Below are positions 23,937-62,743 of a stretch of 64,000 bases of DNA, piece by piece. This DNA comes from Pecten maximus. Its lineage: Eukaryota. The notes below the pieces were generated by a model, which was given only the letters and a program-made list of their open reading frames with translations, did not search any database and had not been told where the DNA came from. Each line of letters starts with the position of its first letter. Position 1 is the first letter of the stretch. Where the stretch lies: positions 17,360,001-17,424,000 of the forward strand of contig NC_047017.1 of NCBI RefSeq assembly GCF_902652985.1, written 5' to 3'. The position numbers and the translations under genes were made by a program.

Positions 23937-26900
23937 TTACCCGACAAATTGACTGGGATTGAGAACATCAAATTTCATTCCGTTTCCCATGGACCCTGAT
24001 GTGCTGCCAGCACTAACTCCACTCATAAACTTGGATGGATCGGTCATACTGGAAGAGGACATCATTTGTTGATTAAGTTGATTTGGGTCGAAGCTACCAG
24101 AGCCACTACCACTGTTAGATCCTCCTCCAGAACTACTCCCAGAACTGCTGCTACTTCCACCACTACTTGACCCACCCCCACCAGAAGAAGAGCCACCTCC
24201 CATCATGTTGCTAGGCGACATCATCTGACTTGAGCCGCCACTTGGACTTGACGAACCCCCACTTGATCCACTGCTGCTGCCTCCACTACCAGAAGAACCA
24301 CCTCCCATCATGTTACTAGGTGACATCATCTGACTTGAACCACTTCCAGACGATGATCCTCCTGTTGATGACGAACCTCCTCCACTTCCACTCATCATAT
24401 TGCTCGGCGACATCATCTGGCTGGAACTGCCACCAGATGATCCACCACTTGAACCCGAAGATCCACCACTGCTCCCCATATTTTGCATGAATTGAGCAGG
24501 ATCAATTTTGTTTTTATCGGGACTGTTAATTGCATTTGGATCAAAGCTACCAGAACTACTGCTGCTACCCCCTCCAGAGCTGCTACTGCTTCCGCCGCTA
24601 CCCCCGGAACTTCCTCCCATCATGCTACTAGGCGACATCATCTGGCTCCCGGATGAACCTGAAGATCCTCCCATTGACGATGAACTTCCTCCGCTTCCAG
24701 TCATCATATTGCTTGGTGACATTTGACTTGAACTGCTTCCTGATGACCCACTACTTGATCCTGAAGTTCCACTTCCACTGGAACTGCTAGATGAACCACC
24801 ATTCATGTTCATTCCTTGAGTCATAGAAGACATTTGCTGCTGCATATTTTGGAGATTTTGGTTGAGCATGTTGTTGTTCATCGATGTCGGATCAAAGCTG
24901 CTGCTGCTACTACTGCTACTTCCACTTCCACCACTACTTCCACTGCTACTACTAGGTTGTTTCTGTTGATTAAGATTATTAGGGTTAAAACTACCTGTAT
25001 TTGATCCTGAACTGGACCCACTAGGGGATGACTGGCTTCCACTGCCTCCGCTTCCACTATTCATGTTTTGTTGAGCTTGCTGCATCATTTGGTTGTTCAA
25101 AGCATTAGGATCAAAGCTGCTGGAACTTCCACTAGATCCTGAACTGGATCCTGAACTAGATCCTGAACTAGATCCTGAACTAGATCCACTCGAAGATGAC
25201 TGACTTCCGCTACTGCTTCCTCCTCCACTGTTCATGTTTTGTTGTGCCTGTTGCATCATTTGGTTGTTCAAAGCATTAGGATCAAAGCTGCTGGAACTTC
25301 CACTAGAACCTGAACTGGATCCTGAACTAGATCCTGAACTGGATCCACTCGAAGATGACTGACTTCCGCTACTGCTTCCTCCTCCACTGTTCATGTTTTG
25401 TTGTGCCTGCTGCATCATTTGATTATTAAGTGAGTTGGGGTCGAAACTGCCCATCGATGAACTTCCTGAAGAACTGGAAGAAGAACCTGATATCATTTGA
25501 TTAGGGTTGAAGCTGCTACTTGAACTCCCCGAACTACTTCCGGAACTGCTTCCGGATGAGGAACCGCCAGAACCCGAAGATGGATTATTGGATTGCATGT
25601 ACTGTTGAGCTTGCTGCATCTGTTGTTGGAAAAGAGCATTTGGGTCGAAACTTCCAGATATGCTCGTATCTGACTGTGAAGATCCGGATGAACCTCCACT
25701 GCTACCATCTGAAGGGTTTGCCGGATTACTCCCTCCTGGGGATGCTACATTGCTAGAGCTACCTGTCAGAAACGACTGAGCAGCTTGTGATTGTTGTTGA
25801 TAGATGGCGTTAGGATCGAATGAAGCCCGTTTGAATACTGAAACGAACGTTTGATATATTTAGTGATTTATAGGAGTGATGAAAGTAGCTGAACAATAAT
25901 ATCACAGATAATAGTTAATATGTTCATTCATCAATGAATTATACATTGAACATATAAGCCGCACAGGAATTAGATATAGACGCAAAAAAATGAATTATAC
26001 TGCATCATACAGCTGTTTTGTCCTTCTAGAACTCATCAATACTATGGACCTGAAGTGCTTCTGCCTAGCAGTTAACGGAGGAAACTAAAAACAAGTCGAA
26101 AGAAATGTCAACATTTTGATGGGGAGGGAACAACAGCCTTATTACTCGATACATTTGTTTAGCAGAAATTCAATAACAGAAACACCATTTAACTGTCAGC
26201 TTTAGCTATTAAAAACTACCTGGTAGTTATTTAACTTACATTTGTTTTGAAAGAAGCGCTGGTTTGCATGTGCTAGATGAACTATGGCAGCTTGTCTAAC
26301 ATTATAAATCTACTGTTACGGTGAATCATGGGGTTAAAGTTGTAATATATATAACCTGTAATTAGACTGTTGATTCAGAGATATCGTATCCAACTATCTA
26401 TACAAATTGGCGGTGCAAGTCCAGTGATATATAATTAAAAGGATATTTATCTACTGAAGCGTTTTGAGTAGAAGAACTTCAAGTGGCAATCGTATTAAAA
26501 GATTGAATTGAATTGAGTTACATTTTAACCACTAATCTTTAAAATGGTTTAAAAACAAGGTGCGCTTGGAATTTTATCAATTTTTTTTATTATCCAGTGT
26601 TATTTATAGGTGTGTGTTTAATACGTAAAAGTACCAGCGGTATAGAAAGCATTACAGTCTAAATCGCGATTATAAATCTATAATACTGTTTGTCAAAATC
26701 AGTTTTGGCTCATCCCACACATAAGGACTATCAAGAGTTGTAGTAGCTACATGTGCGGAACGAAACGAACAACCAAGGGAAAAAAACAAATTAAGAGTTC
26801 AACCTCCTTGCCATGGACCAAAAACAACACATTTGAAAACGTCATGTCAGACACAAAGGATTAGTACCTTAAGATATTAATGAGACAAATCACAATAAAA

Positions 26901-27746
26901 AAAGAAAAATAATTTAAATTGGAAATCAAAACAATATATATATACAAGGCGTACCTACGGAAATAAGGAGGAAAGGACAATGTGCAATAAAAGAGAAAAA
27001 TACAAAGTATATATCTACATGATGACATGCATATATGCATTAGGTAAGAGCTGTCTTACCTGAATTAAGGAAGAGGTGAAGGATATCATTATTCTAGTAA
27101 GTAAATGATCTATTGGTACAGATACTGTACAACATAAAATGTTTGTTTTATATAAACATTCGGCTTTCAATGTTTATAAGGAACAACAGGAATTGTTTAA
27201 GACAATTATTCTATTTATAACCACGACATCCGAAATTTTGTACCACACAACTTCACATATCTAATGAGATTGAGACCACAAGAAAAACATATCATTTTAA
27301 ACAGTAATGACCACTAGATACTATTTATCCATGTGAGTAATGTTCACTGCATTGTCGGGTTCCGGGAGCTGCCGGGAGCTGAGAGCACTTTCATTAGACA
27401 TTTAAAGAGGACTGGTGAAATACCATATCGGATTTCTCTACCAAAAATAAATTGTTTTTGAGGATGCATTTATTTTTTGCATGATTATCATTATGTGATT
27501 TCAACTCTTGTACTTTGGATACCAATAGTATCGTTTTTCATCCATTCCAATTTTGCGATGTCTTTTTCGCGATCGTTACATATTTGCAAAAAAAAAAAAA
27601 TAATAATAATATCAAAACCCGCAAAAATAACCAGTTTTGTGGTTATTCTGTGAAATAAGCTATAAGAACTTATATCGTTAAAGTTAAGGATTACCTGGGA
27701 GTGCATTGCAGCATGCTATGCAGACGAGTGCTATACAAAGAATCAT
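23937..27746 (-). CDS. FDPN gene A: secreted Ser/Gly/Met/Gln-rich FDPN-repeat protein, ~650 aa
   Basis: Exon 1 27695-27746 encodes signal peptide MILCIALVCIACCNA-LP with a phase-1 donor GTAATC. Exon 2 23937-25837 has acceptor TTTCAG and starts VFKR-ASFDPNAIYQQ, in frame with the 560-aa ORF. About 10 F[DN]P[NT] motifs; ends QFVG*. Confidence 0.85.
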
Positions 27747-29589: not shown

Positions 29590-30125
29590 CCCAACATTAT
29601 CATGCAGTGCCAATTTGTGCGAGTGTATAAGGATTCGCTAGCTTTGCCACACAACATTATGCAACAGTGCCCAGTTGTATGAAGATTTGTTAGCCTTGCC
29701 ATGCAACACGTTATCTAACAATGTAAATTTGTCGGAAGACTTGTTAGCTTAATAATACAATGCATTGTCTAACAGTGCCCAGTTGTATAAAGATTTGTTA
29801 GCTTTACCATGCAACACATTATCTAACAATACTAGGTTGTATGAAAATTTGTTAGCTTTATTATACAAAACATCATCTAACAGTTTCCAGTTGTATGAAG
29901 ATTTGGTAGCTTTACCATGCAACACATTATCTAACAATGCTAGGTTGTATGAAGATTTGTTTGCTTTTAATACAACACATTATCTAACAGTTTCCAGTTG
30001 TATGAAGATTTGTTTGCTTTTAATACAACACATTATCTAACAGTGCCTAGTTGTATGAGGATTTGTTAGCTTTTAATACAACCCATCATCTAACAGTGTC
30101 CAGTGTATGTAAATTTGTTAGCTTT
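29590..30125. repeat. ~54-bp diverged tandem repeat (~10 copies)
   Basis: Recurring TTGTATGAAGATTTGTTAGCTTT...CAACACATTATCTAACA; 18-aa periodicity in the ORF track. Confidence 0.85.
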
Positions 30126-38019: not shown

Positions 38020-39301
38020 ATGCCACAAGCGGTTTTCTGTCTCCTTCTTTTGCTTGCAAGAGGTAATTGATTTGTATCAATTTAAAACTTTATAATTTGC
38101 TTCCTTAATAATTTCATAAACAACTATAATTATAAGTCGATTGACTTGATGTTATAATCATGTAATTTAAACGGGTCACTTTTAGCCTTCAGTTGTCAAA
38201 GACGTACTGCTCTAACTTAGTATTCGTGAAATTTAATGTCACGCGACGTTGAAATCTTAAATGAGTGTACCCATGTATTCACGTTTCTGTCACGCTAAAT
38301 TATGTTCTTCTTTTGTTTCTACTTTAGGAAGTTTGACGACTGCATCTAGACCGGAATTTATATCAGCTGGTCACTTTCTTAATGCAAACTCCAGACCATT
38401 GTCTGGTCAAACGCTCGGTAATCATGGACCGTATATGTTTCATCAGAGACCAATGTTACCCAGTCAAAATGAAAATGAAGTAAGTAGACCATCGAATAAT
38501 GCTGGTGTAGCATTTGCCCCACAATTGATACACGACTATTTCAAACCTGGCAAAGAATCATACGGCCAAGGATCGCTTGAGCAGCAAAACAAATGGCCGT
38601 CGAACTTCATGGCAACAAGGCCGAAGCCCATCCAAATGACCCTGGCTAAGAACAGCAGACCTATGTTAGGGTTACTAAAACAACTTATGGCCGGTAGATT
38701 CCATATAGTGGCTGACGCCATTCATTTGGATGCTGTACCGATCATCGAACGACCTATGCAGCCGTATATAGAAGGTATGATTATTGAACCAGACAGTTTA
38801 ATAACAAGTGTACATAGCCACATTGAACCAATACAGCCAATGCATTTTGAATTACCAGAATCAGCCAGACCAGAACACGTTACTTCTTTGACGAATGCCC
38901 GCCCAAACAATGGTGTGCAGCAAGTCCCATTCCAACTGCTTCTCAAAGAATTCAATGACTTGGCTGCGAAAATTAATTTAAAACCCAATGAGCACGCGGT
39001 TACATTTTCCAGCTTATACCAAAATTATATGAAGCTGCTCGAACAACAAAACAAAACAGCATCTCCTCCTATTTTAAAAACTACACTGCCCACAACGACT
39101 GCAAAAACAGAATCAACAGCACCACCTACGACTTCGGAAACGAGGTCAACCATAATTATGAACGTAACACCCACCACATCCGATATTCCAATGAAGACAA
39201 AAGATGACTTTAACATGATCCAGACATCATTCAGCAAAGCTAAAGATGATAAGCCAGCCGTGTGGCTTCCGGGTATGGGACCGGAAATGACCTCACCGTA
39301 A
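38020..39301 (+). CDS. Gene B: secreted orphan protein, Pro-rich with Thr-rich C-terminal part, ~338 aa
   Basis: Exon 1 38020-38062 (MPQAVFCLLLLLAR, phase-1 GTAATT) joins exon 2 38328-39301 (pyrimidine tract + TTTAG) in the frame of the 346-aa ORF; AATAAA near 39479. Confidence 0.8.
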
Positions 39302-39564: not shown

Positions 39565-39720
39565 ATATTATGCAAATGCAGATTTTGGTTGAGGGCAATC
39601 CATGGTTTTGGAGCTGACCTGGACAATATTCCCCGAGGCCGAAGGTCGAGGGGGATATAGTTCAGGGCAGATCCGTAAAACCACTGAATCCCCTCAACCA
39701 AAGTCTTCATTTACATTGTT
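39565..39720. mobile_element. Long imperfect palindrome, probably the end of a hairpin-type element
   Basis: TGCAAATGCAGATTTTGGTTGAGGG...ATATTCCCCGAGGCCGAAGGTCGAGGGGGATAT...CCCTCAACCAAAGTCTTCATTTACA. Confidence 0.6.
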
Positions 39721-40184
39721 ATATGATTTATATTAATGTTAAAAACAAAAACTATATTGACTCCTCGGTGATGTCATGAAATGTTTAAGGAAAATATTGG
39801 ATACTAGGGTCAAAATCTTGTTAGGAACTTAAATCTCTATCTCTGGTCTGATATCTTAAGAAACTGTACATAATCAGTCCGTATCATTAAACCGTTGTAT
39901 ATATATATAACTATATTTTTTGTCTTCATAAGACATTTTGGTGTTTGCTTTTCATAGAAAAAATTAAATAAAACATATGATCCTTTGGAAGTACATCTCC
40001 AGTTTTAAAATTGTGTTAATACTTGTAAGTTATATAAACAAAACTAGATAATACGTGTGATGGATATCTGTATAAAATATACACGAAACATTCAAAAAAT
40101 ATTCTCGTCAACCACAATCCAATCTATTGTCTCCACAATTAACATTCACAAAGAATAACAAAAATATCTAATAACAAATGTGCT

Positions 40185-43100
40185 CTATTTCTTTTTCCCA
40201 AGTGGATTAGCATTTGGGTCAAAACTTCCTGCCGACATTGAATTTGGATCAAATGATCCAAAGTGCATGGAGTTGGGATCAAATGATCCAGCTTTCATGG
40301 AGTTGGGGTCAAATGAGCCAGCTTTCATGGAGTCAGGGTCAAATGATCCTGCTGACATAGAGTTAGGGTCAAAGTTCGGCATAGAATTGATGACGTCAGG
40401 ATTAAATGTTCTTTTCCTCCTTCCAGTTCCTGATAATAGAGGAAGTAATCAATTTTTGAAAATCATTTCATTTTTTTTCTGGTAACCTTATTATCAAACC
40501 CTGTACCATTCCGTAGATACTAAAACTATTTCCATTTCTGAAATTAAATCTTACTCGGGTATTATTGATTTTTTAAATGTAGTCTTCCATAATTAATCAA
40601 GTTAGTTGGCTTAGAAGAAGAAAATGCCCCTAGCAGAATAACATTTGTAATTTCATATATTTTATCAAATACTACTAGTTAAATTCTTTGTAGAAAAATA
40701 GCATCATTGATAAAACTTCAATTTGAAGAACTTCATAAAAACTATCATATTATTCTAAGCATTCAGAAAAACAATTGCAATATGAAAATATACAAACCAA
40801 AGTTGTTTATACTGTTGGGATCAAAGGAGCCAGATGAACTTCCGGTAAAAGAATTTGGGTCAAAAGAACCGGATGTACCTTCACCAGATGTAAATTGATT
40901 AGGGTCAAACGACCCACTGCTGCCACTGAAATAGAACGCCCAGATATTGGTAACGAGCAATACAAACATGGAAATGCTTATAATAGACTGGCTGAGAGAT
41001 TTACATCCGTAACACAAAAACACATTCTTTCTTTATCAAAGAAATCATTTTTTATCACAATTGTTCGTTTCACAAAAAAGAAAAGAAACAAAGAAAGAAA
41101 TGCAACCCTTGACACCAGTAAGTACATGATATAGATTCATATTCGTTGGGTTTATGTTATAAAGACATATCTTTTGCTGAAATATATAATCATTGTTCAA
41201 TAAAAGACAACCAAACATTAATATTCCTTATATCAAAAATAACAAAACAAGAAAAAAAAAAAAAAAAACCGACCTTCCCCCGGATCCGCTGGAGAATCCA
41301 CTGCCACTACCAAATCCACCAGTACTGCTTCCGAACCCGGAGCTGCTTCCGTCGCCTCCGAAGTTACTGTTGATTGCGTTAGGGTCGAATGAACCACTTC
41401 CGGTACTGCTGCTGCTGCTACCGTCACCAAAACCATTGGAGCTGAACCCTCCAGAACCAAAGTTCTGGTTTAAGGCATTAGGGTCAAAAGTTCCTGGAAA
41501 TTATCGAGAATTTGAGAATACACAAGACTTTGACTATTTGACATTAGGGCAAATATGATCATCTGTATTATATAAAAAAATCATAGTTGGGTTTCAAAAG
41601 CTGTGATATAAACAAACGAAATGAGTTTGTAATAGACATATACATGTATGCCAATGACGTGCTAGACAAATAAAAAGTAACAACACAATAACAAAAGACA
41701 GCTCCCGGTTGAATCTCATTTAAATATTATTAGCAATAAACTTTACCATTTATAAATAATTCTTATATAATTACAAAAAGATCGAAAACATGCTATAACA
41801 ATACCTTCTGATGATAAGTTCCCACTTCCTTTACAAACTCTCAGCATCGGTTTAACATAATTTGACAGAAACTCACCATACACTAAATATAAATTCACCA
41901 TTTATCAACATAACACAAACTTATCATACACTTAACATAAACTCTCCATACACTAACATAAAACTCGTCAAAGGCTAAACATAAACTCACCATACACTAA
42001 AAATAATTTAATCATACACTAAACATAAACTCACCATACACTTAACATAAACTCACCATACATTTAACATAAACTCACCATACATTTAACATAAACTCAC
42101 CATTCACTTAACATAAACTCACTATACACTAAACATAAACTCACCATACACTAGACATAAACTCACTTTACACTAAAAATAATTTAATTATACACTAAAG
42201 ATAAACTCACAATACATCTAACATAAACTCACCATACACTTAACATAAACTCATCGTACACTTAACATGAACTCACCATACACTAAACATATACTCACCA
42301 TACACTTAACATAAACTGACCATACACTTAACATAAACTCACTATACACTAAACACAAACTCACTATACACTTAACATAAACTCACCATACACTAAACAT
42401 AAACTCACTATACACTAAACATAAACTCACCATACTTAACATAAACTCATTAACGCACAGACACGGAACAGAAAAGCACCAGACACGAACAAGAAAGCAC
42501 CAGACACGTAAACAGAAACGCACCAGACACGAAACAAACCACCAGACACGGAACAGAAACGCACCAGACACGTAACAGAAACGCACCAGACACGGAACAG
42601 AAACGCACAGACACGGAACAGAAACGCACAGACACGGAACAGAAACGCAGCAGACACGAAAAAGATAAACTCACAATACACTAACATAAACTCACCATAC
42701 ACTTAACATAAACTCACCATACACTTAACATAAACTCACAATACACTAAACATAAACTCACCATACACTTAACATAAACTCACTATACACTTAACATAAA
42801 CTCACAATACACTAAACATAAACTCACCATACACTTAACATAAACTCACCATACACTTAACATATACTCATCATACACTTAAAATAAACTCACAATACAC
42901 TTAACATAAACTCACTATACACTTAACATAAACTCACAATACACTAAACATAAACTCACCATACACTTAACATAAACTCACCATACACTTAACATATACT
43001 CATCATACACTAAACATAAACTCACCATACAATTAACATAAACTCACTATACACTTAACATAAACTCACAATACACTAAACATAAACTCACCATACACTT

Positions 43101-44497
43101 AACATAAACTCACCATACACTTAACATATACTCATCATACACTTAAAATAAACTCACAATACACTTAACATAAACTCACCATACACTTAACATAAACTTA
43201 CCATACACTTAACATTTACTCATCATACACTTAACACAAACTCACCATACACTTAACATATACTCATCATACACTTAACATAAACTCACCATACACTTAA
43301 CATAAACTCACAATACACTAAACATAAACTCACCATACACTTAACATAAACTCACCATACACTTAACATAAACTCACAATACACTAAACATTTACTCACC
43401 ATACACTTAACATAAAGTCACTATACACTTAACATAAACTCACCATACATTAAACATAAACTCACCATACACTTAACATAAACCCATTATACACTAAACA
43501 TAAAATCACCATTCACTTAACATAAACTCACCATACACTATCATAAACTCACCATTCACTTAACATAAACTCACCACAAACTAAACATAAACTCACCATA
43601 CACTAAACATAAACTCACCATACACTTAAAATAAACTCACCATACACTTAACATAAACTCACAATACACTTAACATAAATTCACCATACACTTGATATAA
43701 ACTCACCATACACTTAACATAAATTCACCATACACTTAATGTAAACTCACCATACACTTAATATAAATTCACCATACACTTAAGATAAACTCACCATACA
43801 CTTAACATAAACTCACCATACACTTAACATAAACTCACCATACACTAAACATAAACTCACCATACACTTAAAATAAACTCACCATACACTTAACATAAAT
43901 TCACCATACACTTAATATAAACTCACCATACACTTAAAATAAACTCACAATGCACTAAACATAAACTCACCATACACTAAACATAAACTCACCATACACT
44001 AAACATAAACTCACCTTATACTGAACATAAACTCACCATACACTAACATAAACTCACCATACACTTAACATAAACTCACCATACACTTAACATAAACTCA
44101 CCATAAACTCACCATACACTAAACATAAACTCACCATGCACTAAACATAAACTCACCTTACACTGAACATAAACTCACCATACACTAACATAAACTCACC
44201 TTACACTGAACATAAACTCACCATACACTGAACATAAACTCACCATACACTAAACATAAACTCACAATACACTTAACATATACTCACCATACACTAAACA
44301 TAAACTCAACGTACACTTAACATAAACTCACCATACACTTAACATAAACTCACCATACACTTAACATAAACTCGTCAATGACTAAAATAAACTCACTATA
44401 CACTAAACACAAACTCACTGTCGGCCCAACATAACTCACCATCAGCTAAACATAACGGAAGAACAACCAGCAAACAAACACGAGCGAGAGTTGACAT
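40185..44497 (-). CDS. FDPN gene C: secreted Gly/Ser/Phe-rich FDPN-repeat precursor, 216 aa
   Basis: Exons 44440-44497 (MSTLARVCLLVVLPLCLA-D), 41274-41493, 40798-40925, 40185-40429; phases 1,2,1 are consistent and total 651 nt. 12 F[DN]P[ND] motifs, internal GTG-RRKR, C-terminal PLGKKK*. Confidence 0.88.
41868..44450. repeat. 22-bp minisatellite (~105 copies) in gene C intron 1
   Basis: Unit TAAACTCACCATACACTTAACA; its reverse complement contains ATG|GTGAGT. Confidence 0.95.
42455..42665. repeat. Second ~22-bp repeat (~10 copies) embedded in the minisatellite
   Basis: Unit CAGACACGGAACAGAAACGCAC. Confidence 0.9.
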
Positions 44498-46230: not shown

Positions 46231-49200
46231 ATGAGGAGCAATGTGACTTGGACTGCCGTTGCTATGACGATAGTGTTGATTTCCGGTAAGTACCACGTAT
46301 ACGTTTGATTATGAAGAAAATTCAATATTATTCAAAATAATGCTTAGTCATATATATAAGGTGCATTCCCTAAGCAAAAAACGTTGCATTGTTCGTATTT
46401 AATGTTTCAAACATATACGTAATTCCGAATTCCGGAATTAAGAACCACAGTTAATCAATAATTATCAATCACCACCATCTCGACTCATATAACCCCGTCA
46501 CTATGAATACTTATAAAATATTACATTTTATAATTCCTATAACCTAACAAAAAATAGCCAGGCGTTACTTATTTTGAACTTGTCTACCAGTAGTTTGAAA
46601 TTGAACCAGAGGTCATGTTTTATCGTAGTACAGAATGTACTTTTGAACCATATAAGAGCGACTTATTTCCTCACTTTGGCAGCATTGTCAATATACAATT
46701 AAACCCCACCAACTCAAAATCGTATGAACCATGTAAAAAGTTAGAGGATTACGAGGTATTCGAGTAATCAGAAGCTTGTCAAAGATATCGATATCGATCA
46801 CCCCCATTCTGTAAAATCACAGAGGAAATTAACTGAAGTCACCTCTTTATGTTAAGACTGCTTTGGCTATCGAGAACTTTGTAACTCTTTTGTCAGACAT
46901 ATGAAGACTATGCTAACATTCAACATGCATGATATATGTTGACAACAAAATCAATCACTGCTATACATAATGGGATTTTTTAAAATAACTATTTAGTCTG
47001 CATCTATTTAATTGATCAACACATAAATATCATTTTGCAACATGGTGTTATGTGTTTTTCTTTATCTTTACAGGTACCAGTTCAATCGCACTACCCGGCC
47101 TTGACCTTAGCACTAGTGTTGATGACCCCGAACCTTTCCATCTACCTGCATACCTCAGTCCTGTAGGCGAAGGCAGCAAAGGGGTGAAAACCCAGCCCAC
47201 TACTCGCCCCCCTTCCACCCAGCAACCTGCTTCACACAGCATCACCGCCGGGCAAAATGGCGACGCATTCTCAAACTACCTCATAAAGAGTCTCACACAA
47301 ATGGACGCAAACACTCTAAAGACGCTTTCGAATATTATCAATCTGGAATTGAATAAACAAGTACCATCTCATCAGATACAAGGTCAAGCTCAAAGTCAGA
47401 CATATGACAAAGTTAACGTCCAAAGTCCACCTGAGGCAACACATATTGGTCAGTATCCACACATATCTCATGGGATCACCAGTGAGTCTTCAAGTAGCCA
47501 ATATAAACCTTCGACAATGGCAGGAGCTTCCCAAATGAAGCAGGAAGGTCAAGGATATTCTCACTCTAATAACCTATCCAATAAGCCACTTGGTTTGAAC
47601 GGTGGTCAAGCACCGGCTTTCTCACAACAGACCGTTGATCCCTCTAGGAACCAGCAGCCACAAATGGGAACTTCAGTTAGCCAGTCACAATTTAACCCTG
47701 GACAGATGACGGCGTCTAGTATGGGAGGTGGAAATGGTAACACGGTCCAGGGTATTTCTAACTCGATGTTTCAGACTGCTGTAAGCGGTGGCCGGCCGTC
47801 AGCCTCTAATATGGAAGTGGATACGTCATTTGATCCAAACAGACTCATGGCATCGATAGAAGCAGAGACGTCTCAATACAACCCGAATGCATTCATGGCA
47901 AAGCAAAATTACATCACCGCAAACCAATGGAACTTTGCTAAGCAAAACCAGGTACCTCAGAACACACAATACGTCAATCAGGTTCAGACGGATAATTCTG
48001 CCGTAGAACAACAGAAGAAACCAAACATTATGGGAACTACTCAGCTTAATTTTGAATCCTGATATAATGATGACAGCACTAGGCATTAAAGGCCTGAAAT
48101 TTACATTTAATCCCGATAAAATCAACTCGTTTGGAAGCAATGGGTTTCAGCCTGGTTTGTATCCGCAGTCTTCTGGCAATCGGAAGTTGCCGAAGAACAT
48201 GTTCAATGCAGATACAGTCAACAAGATGCTAATGAGTCACGGTGTAGAGCCAAATCATCAGACAAAACAACAGCCAACGAAGGACCAGGCAAGTCAGGTC
48301 GTCCACAAGTCGGTATACAATCCAGATACATTCAATCATCCGGCAGTACACACTGTACCAAACACCTACTTGCAGTTTATTGGAAATGAAGGTAGTGCTA
48401 CTGTGCAGTCATCAGTAAATAACCATATCGGTAATGGTAAATCAGAGCAATCCATACAATCCGAAACACCTTCTCGTCAGCAAAACGGGAATGAATTCCA
48501 CACACATTTATTGTCACCGATCAGTGATATGGGTAGCACGTCATCTATAAACAACACTTTACAGTCAGTGAAGTTCAATCCCGATCAGACAAATGCTGCC
48601 CAACGCCAGTTCGACCCAGAAATATTATATAAATCTCTGTTTGTCGGTGGAGGCAGACATACATTACCTAGCACACACATGACAATATCTCTACGAAAAT
48701 CGGCTCGCGATGAAAATGGAACAGACGCTGCAGAAATCAATACACCTAAACCACAGACAACCAGTTCAAACTCAAAAGATTCAGGACAATCTACAACTCT
48801 ATCGAGTACCGTTACGTCTACCAAACAACCGGAGACAAGTGTTACGTCAACCACGACTGCTACTACAACTGGAGCAGACGGACTCATGTTTAACCCCGAC
48901 AACGTAAATGCAGGCATTGCCCAGATGATGAATTTCAGCCCAGGATCTCTGATGATGGGATACAATCAGATACAAGCAGGGCAGAACACTAATATGGCAA
49001 ATGCTGCATATAACCCTAATCAAATCAATCAAATGGGAGAATTCCAATCAGTGGTGTCTCCCATGATGGCGGCATTAATGGGAGAAAGCGGCGGTGAGAG
49101 TAACATTGGGTCTCAGACTGCCTCTCAGCCTAATCATGACCAGTCTCAAAGTATATCTGTCATGTTTAATCCAGCTGATGTGAATCACGCAAAGATGAGC

Positions 49201-50196
49201 TTCGACATCAACCAGCAGATGGGTTTCAATGAAAATTCAGGCAACGCAATGTTTGACCCCATGAAGATAAATGTTCTTACAAATAAGAATTTAAATAAGT
49301 CGGTCGGTGCTACCAACAAAAACAACTTCTTTAGCTCAAACGGAATGAATATGATGGATAATTCTGTTTTCACCGGAATGTTTGACCCCAACAAAGTCAA
49401 TCAAGCGCCTATGGCAGATATGAAAGTTAACAAACATCAAAATAGTTCAGCTAGCTCTTCAATGATGAATTATATGTCAACATTTTTGGGAGTGGGTAGT
49501 GTTGGAGGTGCTGGGGGATCTGTGTTTGGCGGGAGTTTTAATCCCTCGGAAGTTAATACGGCTGTTTTTAATCCAAATGATGTGAACAATGCACGAATGA
49601 ACTTTGACCCCGCTAATATGCTTGATCGTAATCCTGGTTACGATTCGGAAAAAGCGTCTCAGACAAATTTCGATCCTACAAAGATCAACGATATTCACAT
49701 GAATTTCCAGCCGCCTTTTATACATGTTGATAAAAACAAGGACGTTAACTCTACATCTAATGCATTTAGTCAGTACAACTCCAAATTCACTCCAGGGCAG
49801 CTCTCTCCTAATGGTAACGCTATGGTGTTTAATCCCACTGAGATAAACCAGGCCAAAATGCACTTTAGCGCTGTAGACATTTTCAACTCCACTGACATCG
49901 GAAATTCCATTGTGACACAGGGCAGCTCGCTCTTCAGTCCACAAGTGCCAAATAAAAATTCCAACATTGCGATGCCTGTGTTCGATCCAGTAGCAGTCAA
50001 CAATATGCAAATGAATTTCCTTCCCAATTCAGCATTGGGTGCTTATCAATCCTCTTTAACAACCATCGGAACAAAACCGAAGCCGAGTACCACATCAATG
50101 TCCACCCCTACTTCACCTACTACTACGACAAGGCAGAAAACGTCCATCACAGCTCCAAGTTCTGTTTCATCTCCAAACTCCACCGACGTAAACTGA
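46231..50196 (+). CDS. FDPN gene D: large secreted Asn/Gln/Ser/Met-rich FNP/FDP-repeat protein (~1058 aa if a 1-nt frameshift near 48054 is corrected)
   Basis: Exon 1 46231-46285 (MRSNVTWTAVAMTIVLIS, phase-1 GTAAGT) joins exon 2 from 47074 (TTTACAG). The 336-aa and 714-aa ORFs overlap and share motifs and composition; ~20 [FY][DN]P motifs; AATAAA near 50236. Confidence 0.82.
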
Positions 50197-51974: not shown

Positions 51975-54900
51975 ATGAAGTGGTTTTCACTTCTTTTCGT
52001 TGTGGCCCTCTTTCATGGGGGATTGGGGAGGAACTTTGCAGGTAAGAGATAGTGGCCAGAGTTAATGGTGGACCACATTTTGCTGATGGCAATTTGAGAT
52101 AAGAGAGTATTAGTTGAACTGTAATCTCGTGTACCCTAACTCAAAGTATAAATACGAAAACAAATTTCACATCTAAACTTTTATCTTTGCTAATTGATGA
52201 TGCTAGGTACATTTAATAGAAACTTAAGTACGGTTCGGAAAGTGCGTCATCACTGTGCTTTAACAAAAAAGGTGTCCACATATGCGATAACAATTAATAC
52301 CGCATCAACATCAATTCGAAAACAGCGAACCCAATAATATTCTTGTTTACACATGAAAAAACGTACTATTGTTTTGCATAATATTAATGCAATATCATAA
52401 TTATTTGGATACACAAAATATTTCATTATGAAATAATATCATTTATTGCATTTTTGCCAGTGAAATATAGAAATTTATCAAGCTAATAAAACTTATATTT
52501 TCACTGCAGCGATGAGCAGTGAAAATATAAGATGTTGCAGTGAAAATATAAGATGTTGCAGTGAAAATATAAGTTTTGCAGTGAAAATATAAGTTTTCCG
52601 TTTTTGACCAGTCAGAGCGGACCTTTGTATTCACCTCGTTGAAACTTGCCGATTTTTCCAATCGAAGCGGAGATAGACAAATTGGTTATTTTGCTATATT
52701 TTTGAAATAATCTGACCAATTTTTGACCAAATACTCACTTGACGTTAGCTATTCATGCACATATTCTCCGATAACTGTAGAAAATGCTTAAATTGCGCTG
52801 ATCAGTCCTTTAAAAATGGCGCCGTCATGTTGACGTAGAGTAACGTCACAATGAGATGACGTCATTACTGATTCCCGCACTTTTTGACACTATTAATTTT
52901 TCGATGTTTTTAATTTTGTTTAAAAGTTTATGAAATGCAATAAAAAGAAAATTGAATGGTTTCCCGTTAAATATAACATATGTTTCACTCGTATGACAGA
53001 ATATCGATATTTTCACGAGTGCGAAGCACGAGTGAAAAATATCGATATTCTGTCATACGAGTGAAATATATGTTATATTAAACGGGCAACCATTCAATAT
53101 CCTCTATGTATTAATGATAGTTACATCGATAAATTGATTAATATTTTGATAGCGGATACAAGTCTATTTTACGCTCAATATGACGTTGGAGGAAGAGTAA
53201 AAAGAGTAGAATCCGGTGTCTGGTACAGTAACAGAATATTTAGAATGCACAATTCTAACCCTTATTTCAGCAGGAACCGATTACCCGAGTAGTATTTGGA
53301 TCAGATTGAAGAATATGTGTATTCCATAAAGCAGGTCAATGTCATTTCACATTAATATATTTTAAAAGAACAAAAGTAGGTTCATTTAATTTCAGAAGCC
53401 ATTTCTTCGATGCATTTTTGTTATGTTAAATGCTGGGATATAACATGAAAAAAAAACGCAAACCCAAAACCAAAAATAGAATTTCGAAATTCCATTCTGG
53501 GGCCATTAGGACGTTTTCTAGACATAAAAGAATATATCGTGATCAAAAAGGATGACATCGCCTAAACATAAAAAGAAAGCAGTACTTGTTTTCTTCTCTG
53601 ATATGACGTCATAAGATTCTGACATTACTGCCATTACTGGTAATTACAAAATCACGTATTGTAGTTACGTGACACCATTGAAGTATTTATTGTGTTAACG
53701 AGTGTTATTTACTTGATGTTTACTAGTGACATTTTCTTGATTTACACTATAACAAGTTAGGATTTTCGAATGTAACATAAATAGATCATTTAGAAAAATA
53801 ATGATTGCATGAAACTTCATAGTCATCTCGAGGCATTTGATGCGAAAGGAGCGCGGACATCAAGGCCATTCTTAATCAACTTGTATATACAAGTTTTCGG
53901 TCTCCTTCTTCAGGATTACGGAGACAGACGTCCAGTTCCGGTGCCACTTCCGTTTTTTCACCTTTTAGTCCAGTAAAAATGGGAAGCGTGAGTGGTGCCG
54001 GTGCCATGAATCCGTTCGCTGCTCAGAGTCAGATGAATCATACCGGGTTTCAAAGTAGTTCGTCATCAACTTCTTCTATTTTCTTGTCTTCCGGAAAGAA
54101 CACAAACTTCAATCCCCTGTCAGGACCCTCTGGAGCGTTAAACCCCTTTAACACCCAGGCATCGTCAGGACAGCAAAGTACTTCTGGAAATAACACAAAC
54201 TTCAATCCCCTGTCGGGACCTTCTGGAGCATTAAACCCCTTTAACACCCAGGCATCACCAGGACAGCAAAGTACTACCGGATACTCCGGACCCGCAGGCA
54301 ATCCAATGCAGTCAGGAAATCCTATGGACATGAATCCATTTGGAGGTAGCACTAATGCAACTTCCAATTCTTCAAGCCAATCAACGGCAAAATTCCCATT
54401 AAATATGAATCCATTCGGATCAAACCAAATGAGTTCAACTGGTTTCTCATCAACATTTGATCCTAACAAAATTAACGGGATGGCATTCTCGGCACTGATT
54501 GGAAGAGGAACATTAGGTCAGTTTAATATACCGCTACTATTTACTATGTACGCTTTTAGAAGCAATCAAGTGGAATAATATTCTTATTTTAGTGTGTTGC
54601 TATCATTGTAGTTAAGCGACAAGCCTCGGGAGGATCTTCCACGATCCCCAAATACGACCCAAATGCGGTCAACCAGTTGACGTCGAGTTTCCTTGACCCC
54701 TCCAAGTCCATGCTCGGCGCAGGAGGTGCCACTGGTGGCATGTACAACCCAGATCAGTGGAATACTATCAGCTTCAACATGTTCAACCCCCAGTCTCAGC
54801 TAGGGAAGCGATGTAAGTTGGGACTTGTTGTAATACATAGGCTAAATGTCGTATGTAAATTACACAAACACAAGATGACGACTCACATTCAAAGAAATTT

Positions 54901-55618
54901 GTAGCAGAATATGTCGCGTTAAAAGTAATTCGGATAAACATTCTCAAGACAATTAGATTCTGCATTGAATTATAAGCATTTAAATATCTAGTCAATCTTA
55001 TAATTGTATTACGGTCAAAAGATTATTCTTTGCGTTTATGTTTAAGATATCAAAAGACAAACTGCTCAAGCGCCAAGCACAGGTGGAAGTATGTCACCTT
55101 CTGCTGGATCAACTTCCGGTGGATCTAGTCCCAGTGGATCTAGCCTGACCAGCGGGGCAAGTCAGACAGGAGGAGCCAGTCAGTCTGGGGGAGCTAGTCA
55201 GGCCGGAAGTGCTAGCCAAACTGGGGGAGTTAGTCAAACTGGGGGCTCGAGTCAGACATCAGGGGCTTCTCAGCTGACACAACCTAGCATGTTTACTAAC
55301 CCAGGGGCATTTACAATGGGTGGTGGGTCACCTTCCTCATCCTCTTCGTCTTCAGGAAGTAGCGGAGGAAGTAGTAGTAGCAGTAGTAGTAGTGGCAGCG
55401 GAAGCGGAAGTGGAGGTAGTGGATCATCCAGTTCCAGTTCTATACCATCATTCGATCCAAACAAATTAAACCAAATTATGTTTAGCTTCCTTGATCCCTC
55501 AAAAGCCCAACTAGGGCAAGGAGGGGGAGGGGGGTCTGGTTTTAATCCGGACCAGATCAACAGCCAGGTGTTCAACTTCTTCAACCCTAACCTCATGATG
55601 GGAGGAGGAAGACGCTAA
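51975..55618 (+). CDS. FDPN gene E: secreted modular precursor, 480 aa, three modules delimited by dibasic sites
   Basis: Exons 51975-52041 (MKWFSLLFVVALFHGGLG), 53914-54516, 54612-54812, 55047-55618, all introns phase 1, total 1443 nt. Modules start LRR-Q, VKR-Q and IKR-Q; AATAAA near 55720. Confidence 0.88.
52441..53107. mobile_element. Hairpin-ended non-autonomous element in gene E intron 1
   Basis: ~75-bp-arm palindrome at 52950-53100 centred on GC-GAA-GC; internal ~20-bp repeats GCAGTGAAAATATAAG; second copy at 62744-63038. Confidence 0.75.
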
Positions 55619-57443
55619 GGTAAACCATAACGTGACACGGGGCTTTATTTATTAGGATTTGATGCATAACATGCTGTACAATTTTAGTCGGATGAATTTT
55701 ACACTGTTAATGCACATGTAAATAAAAGAAAATAAGTTAGAATGCTGAGTGATGCTCCTGTGATATATTGTAGGATGCATCAAAAGAATAAGATGATACT
55801 TGATAAATATGTTGTGTGGATTTTGTAAAAATAGTGCATTTGTGACAAAAAGTCTGTTTGATCAAGCCATGTCATGTAATTTTACAATATATCAAGCTGA
55901 TCACATCAATTCACCAAAATCTTGCGTAAGTAAATAAACCTTAATCATTGTATACAAAGATGTCCATGATGTTTAATTTTCGCTGAATAATCATATTTTA
56001 ATTTCATAAAGCATGAGAATACATTTCCAAATGTTACAACGTACGATTTATCAAGTCTATGAATGTCTCTATTTGTATGTTTCAGGATAAACGCCAAAAG
56101 AGGTGAAACATTACTACTTCAATATTTTCTATAAAAATATAATAAACATGGGAACAGACACCACGTATTTGTGTTGTTTTTCTATGCTGTAATGACCATC
56201 GAAAAAGGACAGTTATTGTTGAATACAACTTTCTTCATTAAGTCACCATTATCGTTCGCTGTTCAACATTAAGTAAGTGAAACTGCATTTAGTACATAAT
56301 TAGGGAAAGAGACTTTCTTCCTAAGCATTGTGATATCAAAGGATATTTCAAAATGGTATTTAAAATAAGGATAACAACAAAAATTAGCATTGCCTTGTTT
56401 CATACCCCCGTGTGATTTTCTTTCGATATATGAAAATATGTTGTGTTTTTTTAGGAAAACAAACATTCGGATTTTGTTTTATGAAATCTTAAGTCAGAAC
56501 ATAATTAGGAAGGGAGATGCATAATAACAAAAACTGCGAATATATGGATACTGTTAAATGGTAACATGACAAAATAAAAATAAAAAAAAATAAAAAAAAT
56601 ATGGCTACTGGTTCAAGGTAACGCATCAAAAACAGTTAAAAGATGGATACTGTTTCATTGTAACATGACAACAAGAACGGCGAATAGATGGATCATGTTT
56701 CATGGTTATTGGTGGATTATTTCAGAAAATACTAAAAGATAACAAAATATATTTCGATACTATCCTTCTGAGTAGAAATCTACACATAACATCTGTATCA
56801 ACGATTTCATCTATATAAGTCATTATCTATTATGTTTACACTAGGGAACATATAAACAAGTCATGCTTTACCCTTGTGGGCAGAGTCAATGAGACCCAAT
56901 CAACTCTTACTGATTCTGGACTAGGCGAGAATCAATATCAATTGTTACACCTGTTGGTCAATTGGTCATTCATCAAATGTCCTACTAATGACACCCGTAA
57001 TTAGTGTTTCTTTATTACACATGGACAAATTACATGTTAGGGACCTATAAACACACATACGATCTGAACATTCATCTGTTGAAGTCGCTGACCAAAGTGT
57101 CCCGTCTTCAAGTTTATAGTAAGAGGGAAATACCAAAACACTTCCATTATTGGATCCATAACAACCACCATGGTACGTATATAGTACTTCAGATATCTGG
57201 GGTGTACTCTTTTCAAAACAACCAGCCTGTGTAAATAGATCTAACACAGACATTCCTAACTCTTATTGTCCTCACATTTAAAACTCACTATGTAACACGT
57301 GGTATACTCCTTTCAGTAAACGTAAACCCGTATTTAAACACCAGCGAAGTATGGCATTTGACTGTTGTTAGTACAATAACAATAGATAGGGACAGAGACA
57401 ATTTCGTAAAGGCTTAAAATTTGGGTACACACATCTCGCGCAG

Positions 57444-60400
57444 ATGAGAATGGCTCTACGCATCATGAAAAAGAGTACATTTTCTACACCGAGGAGATTA
57501 AGTTTCTTTCGGAAGTCTTCGGAAGCATCAAATAATGGCTCGGAATACTCGGATTCTGAAGTTCGTGTACCAAGCAAGGTCAGGAATAAGTATTGTATGT
57601 CTACGTGCAAGTCTCATATTATATTACGACGTTGTCAGTGTTAAGAGTTAATAATGTTCACAAGGGTAGCCCATTATTTGCCTTATTTAACTACAAGTTT
57701 CTCAAGATATATTTTTTGCAAAATGTTTACAGATAAACATTCATCGTGTAAATATATAAATATTTTGTCACGCTTTCATGTAAATCACAACAAAATCATC
57801 GTATAGCTGCATCATGTCAGTATTAGGTGGCGGTGAACAGTACTGTCTGTGTTGACGAAACAGTACCATATCTATAAGATTCATCATTTAACCTTCAATT
57901 TCAAATTCAGTATATCCTTGGACATCCTGGATATAATTATTAATCATATCGCATATTTCTATTTAAACCTATTTGTGTGTCTGTTCATGTTAGTTTACAG
58001 CTGCGAAGTAATGTATCTTTGTGTGTAGCTATGCTGTCATCCATTACGTTAATTACCTGGTATTATAGATAAAGGGGTTTATAGTTAATCAGCTGGGAAA
58101 TAGTTTATATTATTGTGTGAAATAGTCCAAGCTATTCCCCACTGGAAAAGGTGAACTGTTTCGAAGATGTCATTGTTAAACTGTCACATCAAATATGCAT
58201 AGAGAAAACACAGAATGGATAGCATCATACTCATGATTTAAGATTTAACTTAAAGCTGACAACGCAAGATAAAAAGCTTTCCTTTTGAAATAAGAAGAAA
58301 TAATGATTTTTGAAATGGTTTGGAGATGTTCTCTGTGATACAAATATATCTATCTCACGTGCATGCACGCTATTATAGGCACATATCACCAGTCTGTTAA
58401 CTAAGCAGACTTCAACTACAATATCTGCCACTTCCTTGAAAACTGTGACCGGAAGATATATATTTATAAAAGGGAACATCTCCAAACCATTTAAAAAAAG
58501 TATGTTGTTGTTTCTTTTATTTCAAAGCGAAAGCTTTTTAACTTGCGTTGTCAGCTTTAAATATAAAGCAAGTCTATGAAGTGGAGCAACAATATTGAAG
58601 ACAACATATCAATGCATACGTAATTATCGTAATCATAAAAGTAGATGTCGTTCTTAATATTTTAAGATTTAATTATAATCAGGGATATAATGGATATTTA
58701 TTTACATGAGCAAAACTACCTGGTCCCTGCATCTGGTTTGTTAAAACAACGATCGGACACAAAAAAACTACATATTGATATTATTATCATGAATAAAAAC
58801 AGTTCTGATCTAAAATAGATTTATCCTAAATTAAGAATATATATTTACAATGTTTTTTACCAAAATAAAACTTCTATTATACATTAATCCCTTAAATAGT
58901 CAGAGCTTCACATTTCAGACTAGTTTTCATTCCATATAAGTCATAAAACAGCTCTCCATATACTCAATACAGTTTTTTTTCTGAAAAATAAGCCATTGAG
59001 GTAAAGATACTTATTTCGACATAACTATTTTACATAGATACGTACAGTCTCGTAATAAACAAACAATATCAATGAAACTACACGAGGAAAGCAACGAACA
59101 TGTATAAATATATGGAATCATATTTATTAAGCATTTTGGAATGGCGAGTGTCATCTGCTTCATCAGCGATTCTTGTACTATAATTTTTGTGTATACAAAT
59201 ATTATATATATAGCGTTTTAAAGATGGAGAACAGGTTCAGTGACAGCAAAAACACTATAACGACCGTAACTAAACGTCTTGCTTAATAAGATATCAGATT
59301 ACCGAGTTTGAGAACCATCCATAATAAATCCGATATCAAAGTTGGAATAAAAAACAGTGACATGAAAGAACGGATATGAAACAAAGAAAAAATTATCAAC
59401 TCCACAAGTAAGCTGAAAGTAATGTCATGGTTCAGATTTACTCTGTCTCTTTGCTACGAAATTATGAACATCACACAAGGCATTCAAACGAATTAAGCAA
59501 ATTTGGAGCACTGAAATATCCTAAATCCGGGAATTCTATAGATCGTTATAACCTTTTAGGACCTAATAAATATATATTCCATCGAGGCACCCGTTGAAAC
59601 TTCCGAAATGGAGACTAAGCCAGGTGATCACTGTAAAACATGAGACTAATCATATGAGAAAATCTTGACTGAGTTCAACAGAACACATATATCCAATCTT
59701 AACATACAAAAGTATCTGAAGACTTGCAATTGCGTTTCTATTGATGTCAGGAAAACTACCAATCTGGAAATGGAAAGGTTATATTTCTAAATGTTTTGTA
59801 AATTATCTTCAAGAATGCTACTTCATGTACAACTACAAAATTTTTAATTGTATATTTTTGGCAGTTTTCATTATGTTTAAATGTTTATTTCACAGGTCCA
59901 TCAGTTGACCAAAGAACAGATAACAGGTATTGTATTTGTTGATGTTCCTCATTTTGTGTAAAAAGCAGCACTTTCATTGCTTCATAATATGTGCAAAATC
60001 CATCACAGTAAAACTTAAATATACCTTAACAAAACGCATATGATTGAATATAGGTGTATATATTTTGGATGCATGAATGCACGTGGAACTCGATCGCTTT
60101 TATTTCTTCATATTGAATTATTAATTAACATGTTGTTCATTTGTTTATCAACGCAGAATTTAGGGATACATTCCTTTTATTCGACCAGGACGGTGATGGG
60201 ACTATAACAACAAAGGAGCTAGGTCACGTGATGCGATCTCTGGGCCAGAACCCTACCGATGCAGAGCTTCATGATATGATATCTCTGGTAGACAATGACG
60301 GTAAGACAGCAGCGATATGTTCTATTTTCCTCTCCCAAAGTTTCATATTTCTTTAAGCTACTTCCCTGAGTACTCATAATTTTCATACTTGACGTTCTTT

Positions 60401-61625
60401 TGGAATTCAATTTTCAAATTATAATTCTTATTTTAATTGTGGAGCTATTTCACTTCCCCACTTGAACTTTGACCTATTGTTTTTTTTTTTTTAGCTTTTA
60501 CAGCCGCCTTCTAGGTATTAAAACTTTAAACCCTTTGTGTCGCAGCTGAAGTTTCCTTAAATTACGTCACAACTGCATGATGCAGTTTTAATTCATATTG
60601 GCTGTACTGTACCTTATTATCAGCTTGTATTGTAATGGGCTTATGTAGTGTCATTTGTAAATGCATATTTTAAAATCAATTTTACCGTCAATGACATACC
60701 ATTTCAACGTGTTGGGCTGTTTCAGGAAACGGCTCAATAGATTTCGATGAATTCCTTCACCTTGTTGCCAAGAGACTACAAGAAGCAGACATTGAAACGG
60801 GTCTGGTAGAGGCATTCCGCCTGTTTGATAAAGATGGTAACGGTTTCCTCACTGCAAATGAGCTACAAAGTGTTGTAGCGACATCGGGGGAAATCCTTAC
60901 CGACGCAGAAGTTGATATACTGATGAATGAAGCTGATGTCAACAACGATGGAAAAATAAACTATAAAGGTATAGAATGATGTTACAACTATGTATTGGCA
61001 TGATAAGGTTGTATTAATTATTGTGTCACAGGTATTCTTCACATATGTCAAATATTCATGTTATATCAAATGTTTCACACCTGTCAAAAATTTGCTTTAT
61101 TACATCATCATGGAATATAAATAAAAACCGAACGGTGTTCTCTATATGCTGCCTTGAAAATGGCCAAATTTTTCTGTAAAGAAATGAAGTTATAAAAGAT
61201 TGTGTGATTTTTGTTTTTTGAATCTTTGCAGCATATTTGGTTTATTATTATCATCATGATTTTTTTCAACTACGCATTTGATTAAGAAAGTATTGCTTAT
61301 CAGTTACCAGTTGACTATGAAGCACGAGGCAACGTTTTGTAGGTGTCGTTCGATAGGTTGGTTAACATATTCAAATTGAAAACATTTCAATAACCATTCA
61401 ACACCTTATATAATACAGTTCGAATACTTTTGTCATATTGAATTATCCTTTACATATCATGTTATTATCGCAAACTTTTTGTTATATTCTTAAATTAATT
61501 TTAGGATGCAATGAAATTGTATCCAAATCAGGTGTGAACATTACCTATTGATCATATTACACAAGTAATACAAATGAAATGTTTCCTTTATTTCAGAGTT
61601 CGTCAAGTTGATGACAGGGAAATGA
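57444..61625 (+). CDS. Calmodulin-like protein (4 EF-hands), probably N-terminally extended
   Basis: Exons 59896-59926 (31 nt), 60157-60300 (144 nt), 60726-60968 (243 nt) and 61597-61625 match calmodulin exon sizes. Loops [48 protein letters not shown]. The first exon 57444-57578 (phase 0, AAG|GTCAGG) is less certain. Confidence 0.9.
58254..58556. mobile_element. MITE with long TIRs and TTAA flanks (Kolobok-like)
   Basis: TTAA-AGCTGACAACGCAAG...CTTGCGTTGTCAGCT-TTAA; inverted similarity extends ~80 bp (ATGGTTTGGAGATGTTC / GAACATCTCCAAACCAT). Confidence 0.75.
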
Positions 61626-62743
61626 AGACAGGGAAGAACCCGTCACTAAAGTGTTCTGTAGACTTAGTCATTCGTCATGAAAACGCAATATTTCTGTTCT
61701 TTATGCTGTGATAACTACAATAAATCCACACACTTTAGATATGTTTCCTGGCAGGATTTATGATATCTTTATTCTTTGAACTCTTAATGTATCCACAGGC
61801 TGGTTTTCGTGGTGACTATTAGTTTTATGACAATTATCAAGGATTCTTATTACATATAAAATCCTGATCATGTTCTACGCTTTCTCATCAACATCAACCC
61901 ATAAGTACTTATACAGTCGAGCATCTTCCTTTTTCCAGCATGCAAAAAAGTGATCGGATTTTGGAACGGCAAGATTTCTTGGTGTTATCTTATGTACCAT
62001 TTGTCTGTAATATATATATATATGCGAACGTGTAAGAATTATATTTATTATTTACTCTTTCACTCACAAATCACTCAAAGAAATCATTAGACGTCATAGA
62101 CTTGCAGAAATCGGAAGCGAAACTTGATGTTCAGGATGTAAAATAATTTGTGAAACAAATAAATCCATGAACGCATGATGATCTCAGACACAATAAACTA
62201 TGTCATAATGAAAAACGGACTTCAGCATTTTTATCTCGAAAGATTTGTTTTTGTGTTTATTCACGCCCCAGTTTCATCAATATTAGATACAAGCCATAAT
62301 ACAAGATTTATTCCACATCTAATATCGGGGAAAACTTAAAACAATAAAATTTCCTTAACATAAGGAAAATTGATGAAACAGAGGCAGGGATAAATAGAAT
62401 GTAATTTCATAACCAAAAGATTATTTTGTTGAAGTTAGATATAAAAGATATCATAAATTCACCAATTGATTAAATATTGAGTGCATATAATTATGCCTCT
62501 TCTATATTTAAATATGTGCTTTATGTCATTTTTACTTCTTTTCAAACCTTTTGGTCCCGAAGCATCAGTGATGAGTCTTAGATGAATGAAAAAGCTGTAT
62601 GCAGTTTGCTAGTTCATTGTTTGACATATACCGTTGTTATATTCATATGACAGTTGTTATTCTCTTGTCTTTTGCACAATTGTTATAATTACATAGCATA
62701 CGTGTCCTGAAAGAGACACTTGCGACGTGGGGAGAAAACATAG

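Follow-up and report, generated by a model that had tools for sequence, protein, structure and literature searches.

Convertases, carboxypeptidases, PAM and glutaminyl cyclase read patterns in which Gly precedes, or Gln follows, a cluster of basic residues. Arthropods have amidated Gly-rich antimicrobial peptides, and pedal peptides, which start with Phe-Asp, are encoded as many short copies flanked by dibasic sites. The pedal peptide precursors of scallop carry 25 and 6 variants, according to one study (PMC5996578). Here we describe gene C, which lies on the minus strand of a 64,000-nucleotide stretch of Pecten maximus DNA (contig NC_047017.1, positions 17,360,001 to 17,424,000; this whole stretch is called the window, and positions count from its first letter). 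Gene C is a real, spliced, expressed scallop gene with a single transcript. Its product contains repeated Phe-Asp-Pro-Asn (FDPN) motifs and is predicted to be a precursor of two long, amidated peptides.

Gene C has four exons (Table 1), separated by GT-AG introns of phases 1, 2, and 1, and encodes 216 amino acids followed by a stop codon. Five donor positions were tried for exon 2, and one alone gave this single open frame. Nine of 24 sequencing runs cover part of the window, and five of these, from two studies, cover more than one-fifth of it; that the runs are RNA is presumed and is supported by spliced joints. In runs X1, X2, and X5, a single contig joins exons 2, 3, and 4, with splicing seen in runs of both studies, and the exon 3/4 joint is present in three of the four runs compared with the window. 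Contigs with loose ends at position 41494 continue into exon 1 for 101 letters in X5 and 10 letters in X1. An earlier note on this locus had asked for transcript mapping and raised the objection that the exons might belong to separate transcripts. Since contigs join exons 2 to 4 and the loose ends of two runs enter exon 1, this objection fails.

The loose ends of the RNA contigs also carry the 5′ untranslated region (UTR) to at least about position 44540. Low-depth contigs within intron 2 show that X1 and X2 also contain a little material that is unspliced or DNA. Repeat number and spacer length vary between individuals: X1 lacks one 30-nucleotide repeat unit, and X5 has an 18-nucleotide insertion in exon 2. 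No variant is listed among the RNA contigs for the RRKR and GKKK codons described below. No contigs of gene C, or of the neighboring gene E, were seen in runs X7 and X12; as contigs cannot show absence, we did not use these blanks as tissue evidence. The 22-nucleotide minisatellite of intron 1 begins at the exon 1 donor, and the minus strand of 41860-44460 contains 85 copies of GTGAGT and 58 of ATGGTGAGT. Despite these repeated donor-like units, the two runs with loose ends splice at the first donor. Read-through into intron 1 would meet a stop within about 14 codons.

The precursor begins with a hydrophobic leader, followed by a Gly/Ser/Phe region, G-RRKR, a block of 10-amino-acid repeats, and a terminal G-KKK-stop. 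The leader is a predicted signal peptide, with its hydrophobic core at residues 7-17 on the Kyte-Doolittle scale. As the earlier note had described, the spliced model reads NNF-GTG-RRKR-TFNPDV inside and PLG-KKK-stop at its end, and the FDPN units of the N-terminal half, of which there are five, are set in Gly/Ser/Phe spacers. The 10-amino-acid repeat is also there (30-nucleotide period, 4.3 copies by Tandem Repeats Finder), and the formula quoted for it is only approximate, as one unit has FDPD and the last reads FDPNANPL. The precursor has only two basic clusters, at residues 139 and 214, which are the borders of the predicted peptides; no basic sites occur between FDPN units. When residues 19-216 were shuffled, R-x-[KR]-R arose in 103 of 100,000 sequences and a terminal Gly with at least two basic residues in 34 of 100,000. 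RRKR had been called a furin site: the fit to the R-x-[K/R]-R consensus holds, but the enzyme is not nameable from sequence. Its placement at an exon start was correctly seen, as RRKR lies three residues past the junction-spanning Gly of exon 4. In genes C, E, B, and F alike, a basic site lies no more than nine residues from an exon start.

Similar signals recur across the family. We examined 33 basic clusters in 15 family proteins, leaving out five gene-D-type proteins. Gly occupies position -1 in 17 of the 19 clusters that lie within 15 residues after [FY][DN]P, compared to two of the 14 others (Fisher p 3e-5, a value that overstates the case because the sites are related and repeated and the cut-off was picked after viewing the data). 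The two exceptions are the second sites of G-KR-YI-KR-Q doubles, and none of the 13 basic clusters of gene-D-type proteins is preceded by Gly. The C terminus is G, G-R, or G-[KR]2-3 in nine of the 15. Gly stands before the basic residues at module ends and not at module starts, where Gln often follows them; this pattern points to convertase cleavage and amidation. Of the claim that gene C encodes two peptides with amidation-type ends, the terminal signals are borne out family-wide, while cleavage and amidation themselves remain predictions. Conservation of the terminal site, which the earlier note had wished to see, was found in the relatives: the end is G-RR in a paralog on contig 6, G-KK in the zebra mussel protein DPMN_177200, and G-KK in all 10 members of the cluster of P0030, an exon-like call from metagenome records.

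The contig-6 paralog (12906816-12909942, L043), which was found with a tighter codon pattern and is an eight-exon model only, shares its exon 1 junction with gene C, has phase 2 introns, is built of GGFGGSGFGSSS repeats, and ends FDPNAINANFG-G-RR-stop. Its exon 2 resembles that of gene C (weakly by BLASTP, E 7e-4). It is likely the ortholog of DPMN_177200, which carries GSFDPNAINANFGG and has an annotated SignalP signal peptide (residues 1-16). Since both proteins are of the first-half type alone and have G-RR or G-KK as their end, following a like FDPN motif, RRKR in gene C is likely the old C terminus of a gene for one peptide, beyond which a second exon module now follows. This would explain why RRKR lies at the start of an exon. 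Relatives of the second half include P0030, which is 63% identical to gene C exon 4 (E 9e-28) and has no dibasic site ahead of the repeat block in its called frame. Two further exon-like sequences have such sites just ahead of a related block: V-L-KR-Q in P0056, which ends in Gly, and G-KR-NLQ-KR-YNPDV in L031.

In the processing we propose, the signal peptide would be removed and the precursor cut after RRKR; the basic residues would be trimmed and the last Gly converted to an amide by convertase, carboxypeptidase, and PAM chemistry. We consider it quite probable that these steps yield a peptide of about 119 amino acids ending in NNFGT-amide and one of 70 amino acids ending in ANPL-amide. Processing by this route is also predicted for myticalins, which are epithelial peptides of bivalves (PMC5577615). 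It has to be weighed that the basic clusters could instead be charge patches of a protein secreted whole. Cleavage is a prediction from sequence, and G-K is also the end of two byssal proteins, Dbfp9-beta and Dbfp10-alpha (PMC6474901). Against charge patches, basic clusters occur at module borders only, and Gly stands before module-end but rarely before module-start sites; we regard secretion of the uncut protein as very unlikely.

Table 1. Gene C, its sequence elements, and neighboring features, in positions of the window
Feature	Position	Strand	Remarks
Gene C exon 1, coding part; signal peptide	44440..44497	-	predicted cleavage near Ala18; Kyte-Doolittle hydrophobic core
Gene C exon 2; two FDPN units within Gly/Ser/Phe spacers	41274..41493	-	gene model and RNA contigs
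Gene C exon 3; three FDPN units, the last FDPNSINNF	40798..40925	-	gene model and RNA contigs
Gene C exon 4	40185..40429	-	
G-RRKR near exon 4 start; predicted amidation signal and convertase site	40410..40424	-	residues 138-142
Second predicted peptide, 70 amino acids; TFNPDV lead and 10-amino-acid GSFDP[N/D]SMxx repeat	40200..40409	-	copy number differs between individuals
G-KKK-stop, predicted amidation signal	40185..40199	-	gene model
Gene C 3′ UTR, continues past 39700	39700..40184	-	contig from run X1
22-nucleotide minisatellite filling gene C intron 1	41865..44455		tandem-repeat scan; unit resembles exon 1 donor
Gene B	23937..27746	-	signal peptide, KR, long Ser/Gly/Met FDPN protein, Gly-stop end; model only
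Gene D, main frames	47016..50196	+	long FNP/FDP protein without Gly-dibasic sites
Gene E	51975..55618	+	exon modules KR-Gln...G-KR and KR-Gln...G-RR-stop
Calmodulin-like gene, divergent, between genes E and F	57384..62011	+	same runs as genes C and E

As to function, we favor, with middling confidence, the reading that the gene C peptides help to build the matrix of a non-byssal mucus or gel, secreted by glands of the foot and of adjoining epithelia, including the gill. Both peptides have an isoelectric point (pI) of 4.05, with two Lys and no Arg, and the precursor has no Tyr and confines Cys to the signal peptide. Being long (about 119 and 70 amino acids), acidic, and predicted to be disordered, the products fit a secreted matrix better than they fit short neuropeptides. 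An AlphaFold model of exon 4 has local turns only (predicted template modeling score 0.16), and the other AlphaFold model scored 0.17, so that neither gives a confident fold. In the supplement of PMC9210306, DPMN_177200 is foot-specific (foot 66.8, gill 6.4, mantle 0). As its identifier sits in the foot-specific row alone, it is not among the genes that responded to byssus cutting in that supplement, and it is outside the identifiers given in the 36-row byssal table, many rows of which carry none. In the mechanism we envisage, the Phe of each F-D-P-N turn would serve as a sticker, with Gly/Ser stretches as the flexible spacers in between, and the capped ends would protect the chains and remove terminal charge, favoring association into a hydrated matrix. 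This part of the model, on which we are evenly divided, is more weakly inferred than the processing.

The composition rules out adhesives based on 3,4-dihydroxyphenylalanine (DOPA), shematrins, and cationic antimicrobial peptides. A DOPA-type byssal protein was rejected both for the missing Tyr and for the absence of DPMN_177200 from the listed byssal identifiers (PMC9210306 supplement). The gene C peptides might instead defend the mucosa of foot and gill, as myticalins or the amidated Gly-rich antimicrobial peptides of arthropods would. In keeping with this, they share with myticalins a signal peptide, a convertase site, amidation as a prediction, and expression in epithelia (PMC5577615). The gene F ortholog DPMN_161919 is, moreover, strongly variable in the gill table of the PMC9210306 supplement, if non-significantly so (log fold change -5.6, false discovery rate 0.46). 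Mature myticalins, however, exceed a pI of 11 and an Arg content of 10% (PMC5577615), and with the acidic, Arg-free composition of both gene C peptides we rejected a myticalin-type peptide and consider a defence role unlikely.

Gene C might alternatively encode a matrix protein of shell or ligament, with basic tails and LICP-like processing. Such a protein would likewise be secreted and of low complexity, and the gene C cluster includes a calmodulin-like gene that appears in the same runs. In pearl oyster, the ligament contains LICP, a 10-mer capped by pyroglutamate (PMC13080008), and Met-rich insoluble shell proteins are known (PMC7591529). Yet the mantle value of the homolog DPMN_177200 is 0, and the family motif is absent from the peptide tables of a shell proteome covering four bivalves, a scallop among them, and from the Perna viridis shell tables, where the matches were calponin and RNase. 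Shematrins, which we rejected as a class for gene C, are Tyr-rich (means 10.6-13.8%), neutral to basic (pI 7.5-10.6), and mantle-expressed, whereas gene C is acidic and without Tyr. A shell or ligament role is thus improbable in our view.

Gene E bears on a further alternative. By its Gln-start, Gly-basic-end modules, gene E is a stronger peptide-precursor candidate than gene C. A dibasic site and then Gln open each of its exons, and G-KR and G-RR-stop close the two constitutive ones. Splicing of gene E is seen in X1 and X5; the main transcript leaves out exon 53914-54516. A two-sequence profile of its module found seven proteins among 1134 candidates, including proteins of Ylistrum, Mizuhopecten, and zebra mussel. 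In the orthologs (Ylistrum XP_060082940.1, Mizuhopecten OWF35745.1, Dreissena KAH3857261.1), modules end in G-RR, G-KRR, G-KR, or G-R, and their number differs between species. No copy of the module was found elsewhere in the P. maximus genome beyond the window. Full-length copies are 60-72% identical between scallop and zebra mussel, with the best reaching 72% over 57 amino acids; these lineages split several hundred million years ago.

This conservation, together with a prohormone layout, tandem modules, G-KR ends, and KR-Gln starts that could give pyroglutamate, is what would be expected if the FDPN family encoded signaling peptides (a hormone, a paracrine signal, or a waterborne cue) of peripheral neurons or glands, with E as the conserved ligand and C divergent. 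For gene C itself, products of 70-119 amino acids with low complexity and variable repeat number speak against signaling. FDPN, FNPN, SFDP, and FNPD were also absent from six supplements of a scallop ganglion study with de novo precursor prediction, which covers one species with a curated list (PMC5996578). The motif blanks in shell and ganglion data weakly point away from both tissues. Signaling is nevertheless the alternative we take most seriously, although we think it rather unlikely.

Several points weigh against a secreted matrix built of processed gene C peptides. Chief among them is the gene E module, whose conservation exceeds what a gel filler would be expected to show and is more ligand-like; it is the main fact that the matrix reading explains poorly. 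The tissue evidence comes from one zebra mussel gene in a three-tissue comparison, and by motif (compared by eye, unaligned) that gene is less close to gene C than to the contig-6 paralog. Searches of longer proteins, with HMMER, of metagenome loci, and with patterns returned no full-length ortholog of gene C in which the internal RRKR could be compared. On the processing side, apart from the relatedness of the sites in the Gly test, six of the 15 family proteins have no terminal amidation signal, four of which look like gene calls running into introns, and the gene C products themselves are predictions.

Gene C belongs to a group of six or more neighboring genes that share F/Y-D/N-P motifs. 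In six-frame scans of the window and 100 kb on either side, the motif was confined to about 50 kb, comprising genes B, C, D, and E within the window and F and G beyond its end. Within 42 kb here fall 14 of the 40 genome-wide matches to a G-[S/T..]-FDPN codon pattern. Gene C alone accounts for nine of the 14, and a reversed pattern, used as control, matched 15 times genome-wide; the concentration of the motif at this locus is not chance. Gene B starts F-KR and ends in Gly in its model. Gene F, also a model only (L011 397-6143; 10 exons, 701 amino acids), starts L-RR and has V-G-RR ahead of a short tail. DPMN_161919 keeps RR before its first motif and has long motifs in common with gene F (by eye), and is likely its ortholog. 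A YDPN/YNP-rich exon, gene G (L011 8235-8834), extends the cluster further. The large exon of gene D has orthologs in Argopecten and Mizuhopecten at 63-65% identity. Near 48054 the assembly has a frame break through which three orthologs read; it may be an allele or an assembly error, and RNA contigs are absent there. All named homologs of the FDPN family are hypothetical or uncharacterised.

Among the other neighbors, the calmodulin-like gene is spliced in X1 and X5, with no contigs seen in X7 and X12. Low-complexity exons lie between genes B and C (38330-39301, plus strand; 33156-34763, minus strand), one with a Thr-rich tail and one with a 535-amino-acid Ser/Arg-rich frame. A high-copy repeat with inverted parts occupies 52430-53110 and 62760-63070 and yields many contigs in all four compared runs. 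Minisatellites at 961-2319 (48-nucleotide unit), 15428-18710 (22-nucleotide unit), and 29654-30125 (54-nucleotide unit) give rise to long spurious frames.

Domain and similarity searches returned few relatives. None of eight sequences scanned reached a Pfam gathering cut-off (exon 4 scored 19.4 bits against Decapeptide PF25296, where the cut-off is 45). A PDB sequence search gave weak matches only, which resembled Gly/Ser linkers, and none of four candidates among longer proteins scored against exon 4. HMMER, run against 1.84 billion representatives, gave 173 matches with E ≤0.001; after a motif screen and inspection, only P0030 and P0056 were family-like among the 150 listed. The other matches inspected were unrelated repeats, including Lymnaea P0107 and the neuropeptide-like precursor P0059. 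The latter, a 658-amino-acid protein with a signal peptide and many KR-flanked SWGxF[E/D]P peptides, is possibly a fused gene call, and its N-terminal part presumably resembles a dioxygenase. In a metagenome locus scan, 56 stretches matched and none was confirmed. A pattern scan gave five loci, of which L031 is relevant and four are unrelated, phage-like or other non-animal proteins. Exon 4 had 47 matches in its own genome, and the four non-self loci inspected (nine were fetched) were other repeats; a frame of FNPNSQHLS-type 10-amino-acid repeats on contig 11 (L009 1483-1734, minus strand) is probably a minisatellite. In the Atlas, the match to P0002 (0.77, enamelin) was below lead level and was not used, and P0191 offered nothing usable.

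The precursor type is known and its processing route is textbook; the FDPN family is apparently undescribed. No paper describing the FDPN motif in molluscs was found in literature that is short on subscription journals, and nothing named in the available parts of PMC6337334 and PMC5549309 matches the family. Scallop foot secretome tables apparently lack full sequences and are hence uninformative on the family. What looks novel is the cargo: long, acidic, Tyr-free repeat peptides with predicted amide caps, common to scallops and zebra mussels. If these are foot gel components, they would represent a DOPA-independent bivalve secretion, with a bearing on settlement, crawling, and zebra mussel fouling. 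If the conserved gene E module is a ligand, a mollusc peptide signal has been missed. Speculatively, and with little confidence, both could be true of an ancient, clustered, exon-modular bivalve family whose FDPN peptides are long, amidated, and often capped by pyroglutamate, and which would constitute a secretory system dedicated to foot and gill. A conserved E-type peptide would serve as signal or nucleator, and repeat-expanded C-, B-, and F-type peptides would form a DOPA-free underwater gel whose assembly is triggered by prohormone-style cleavage.

Of known proteins, DPMN_177200 shares with gene C a signal peptide with FDPN right after it, the GSFDPNAIN[S/A]NFGG motif, Gly/Ser/Phe spacers, and a basic end after Gly (G-KK). 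It differs in encoding a single peptide and in lacking both an internal dibasic site and the 10-amino-acid repeat, and is a table entry without function. The gene E orthologs, all unannotated, have FDPN-type motifs and modules ending in G-KR, G-RR, or G-KRR, but a conserved module of about 50 amino acids in place of repeats. Shematrins and the Dreissena byssal proteins (Dpfp/Dbfp) resemble gene C in being secreted, Gly-rich, and repetitive, often with basic tails. Myticalins (PMC5577615) are made in bivalve epithelia as prepropeptides that have a dibasic site and are predicted to be amidated; unlike the gene C products, they are Arg/Pro-rich, 23-42 amino acids long, and followed by an anionic C-terminal propiece. 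Pedal peptide precursors were rejected as a match, since the FDPN units of gene C lack separating basic sites. Molluscan neuropeptide precursors in general have the signal peptide and the G-basic pattern of gene C, but carry many short copies where gene C has two long products.

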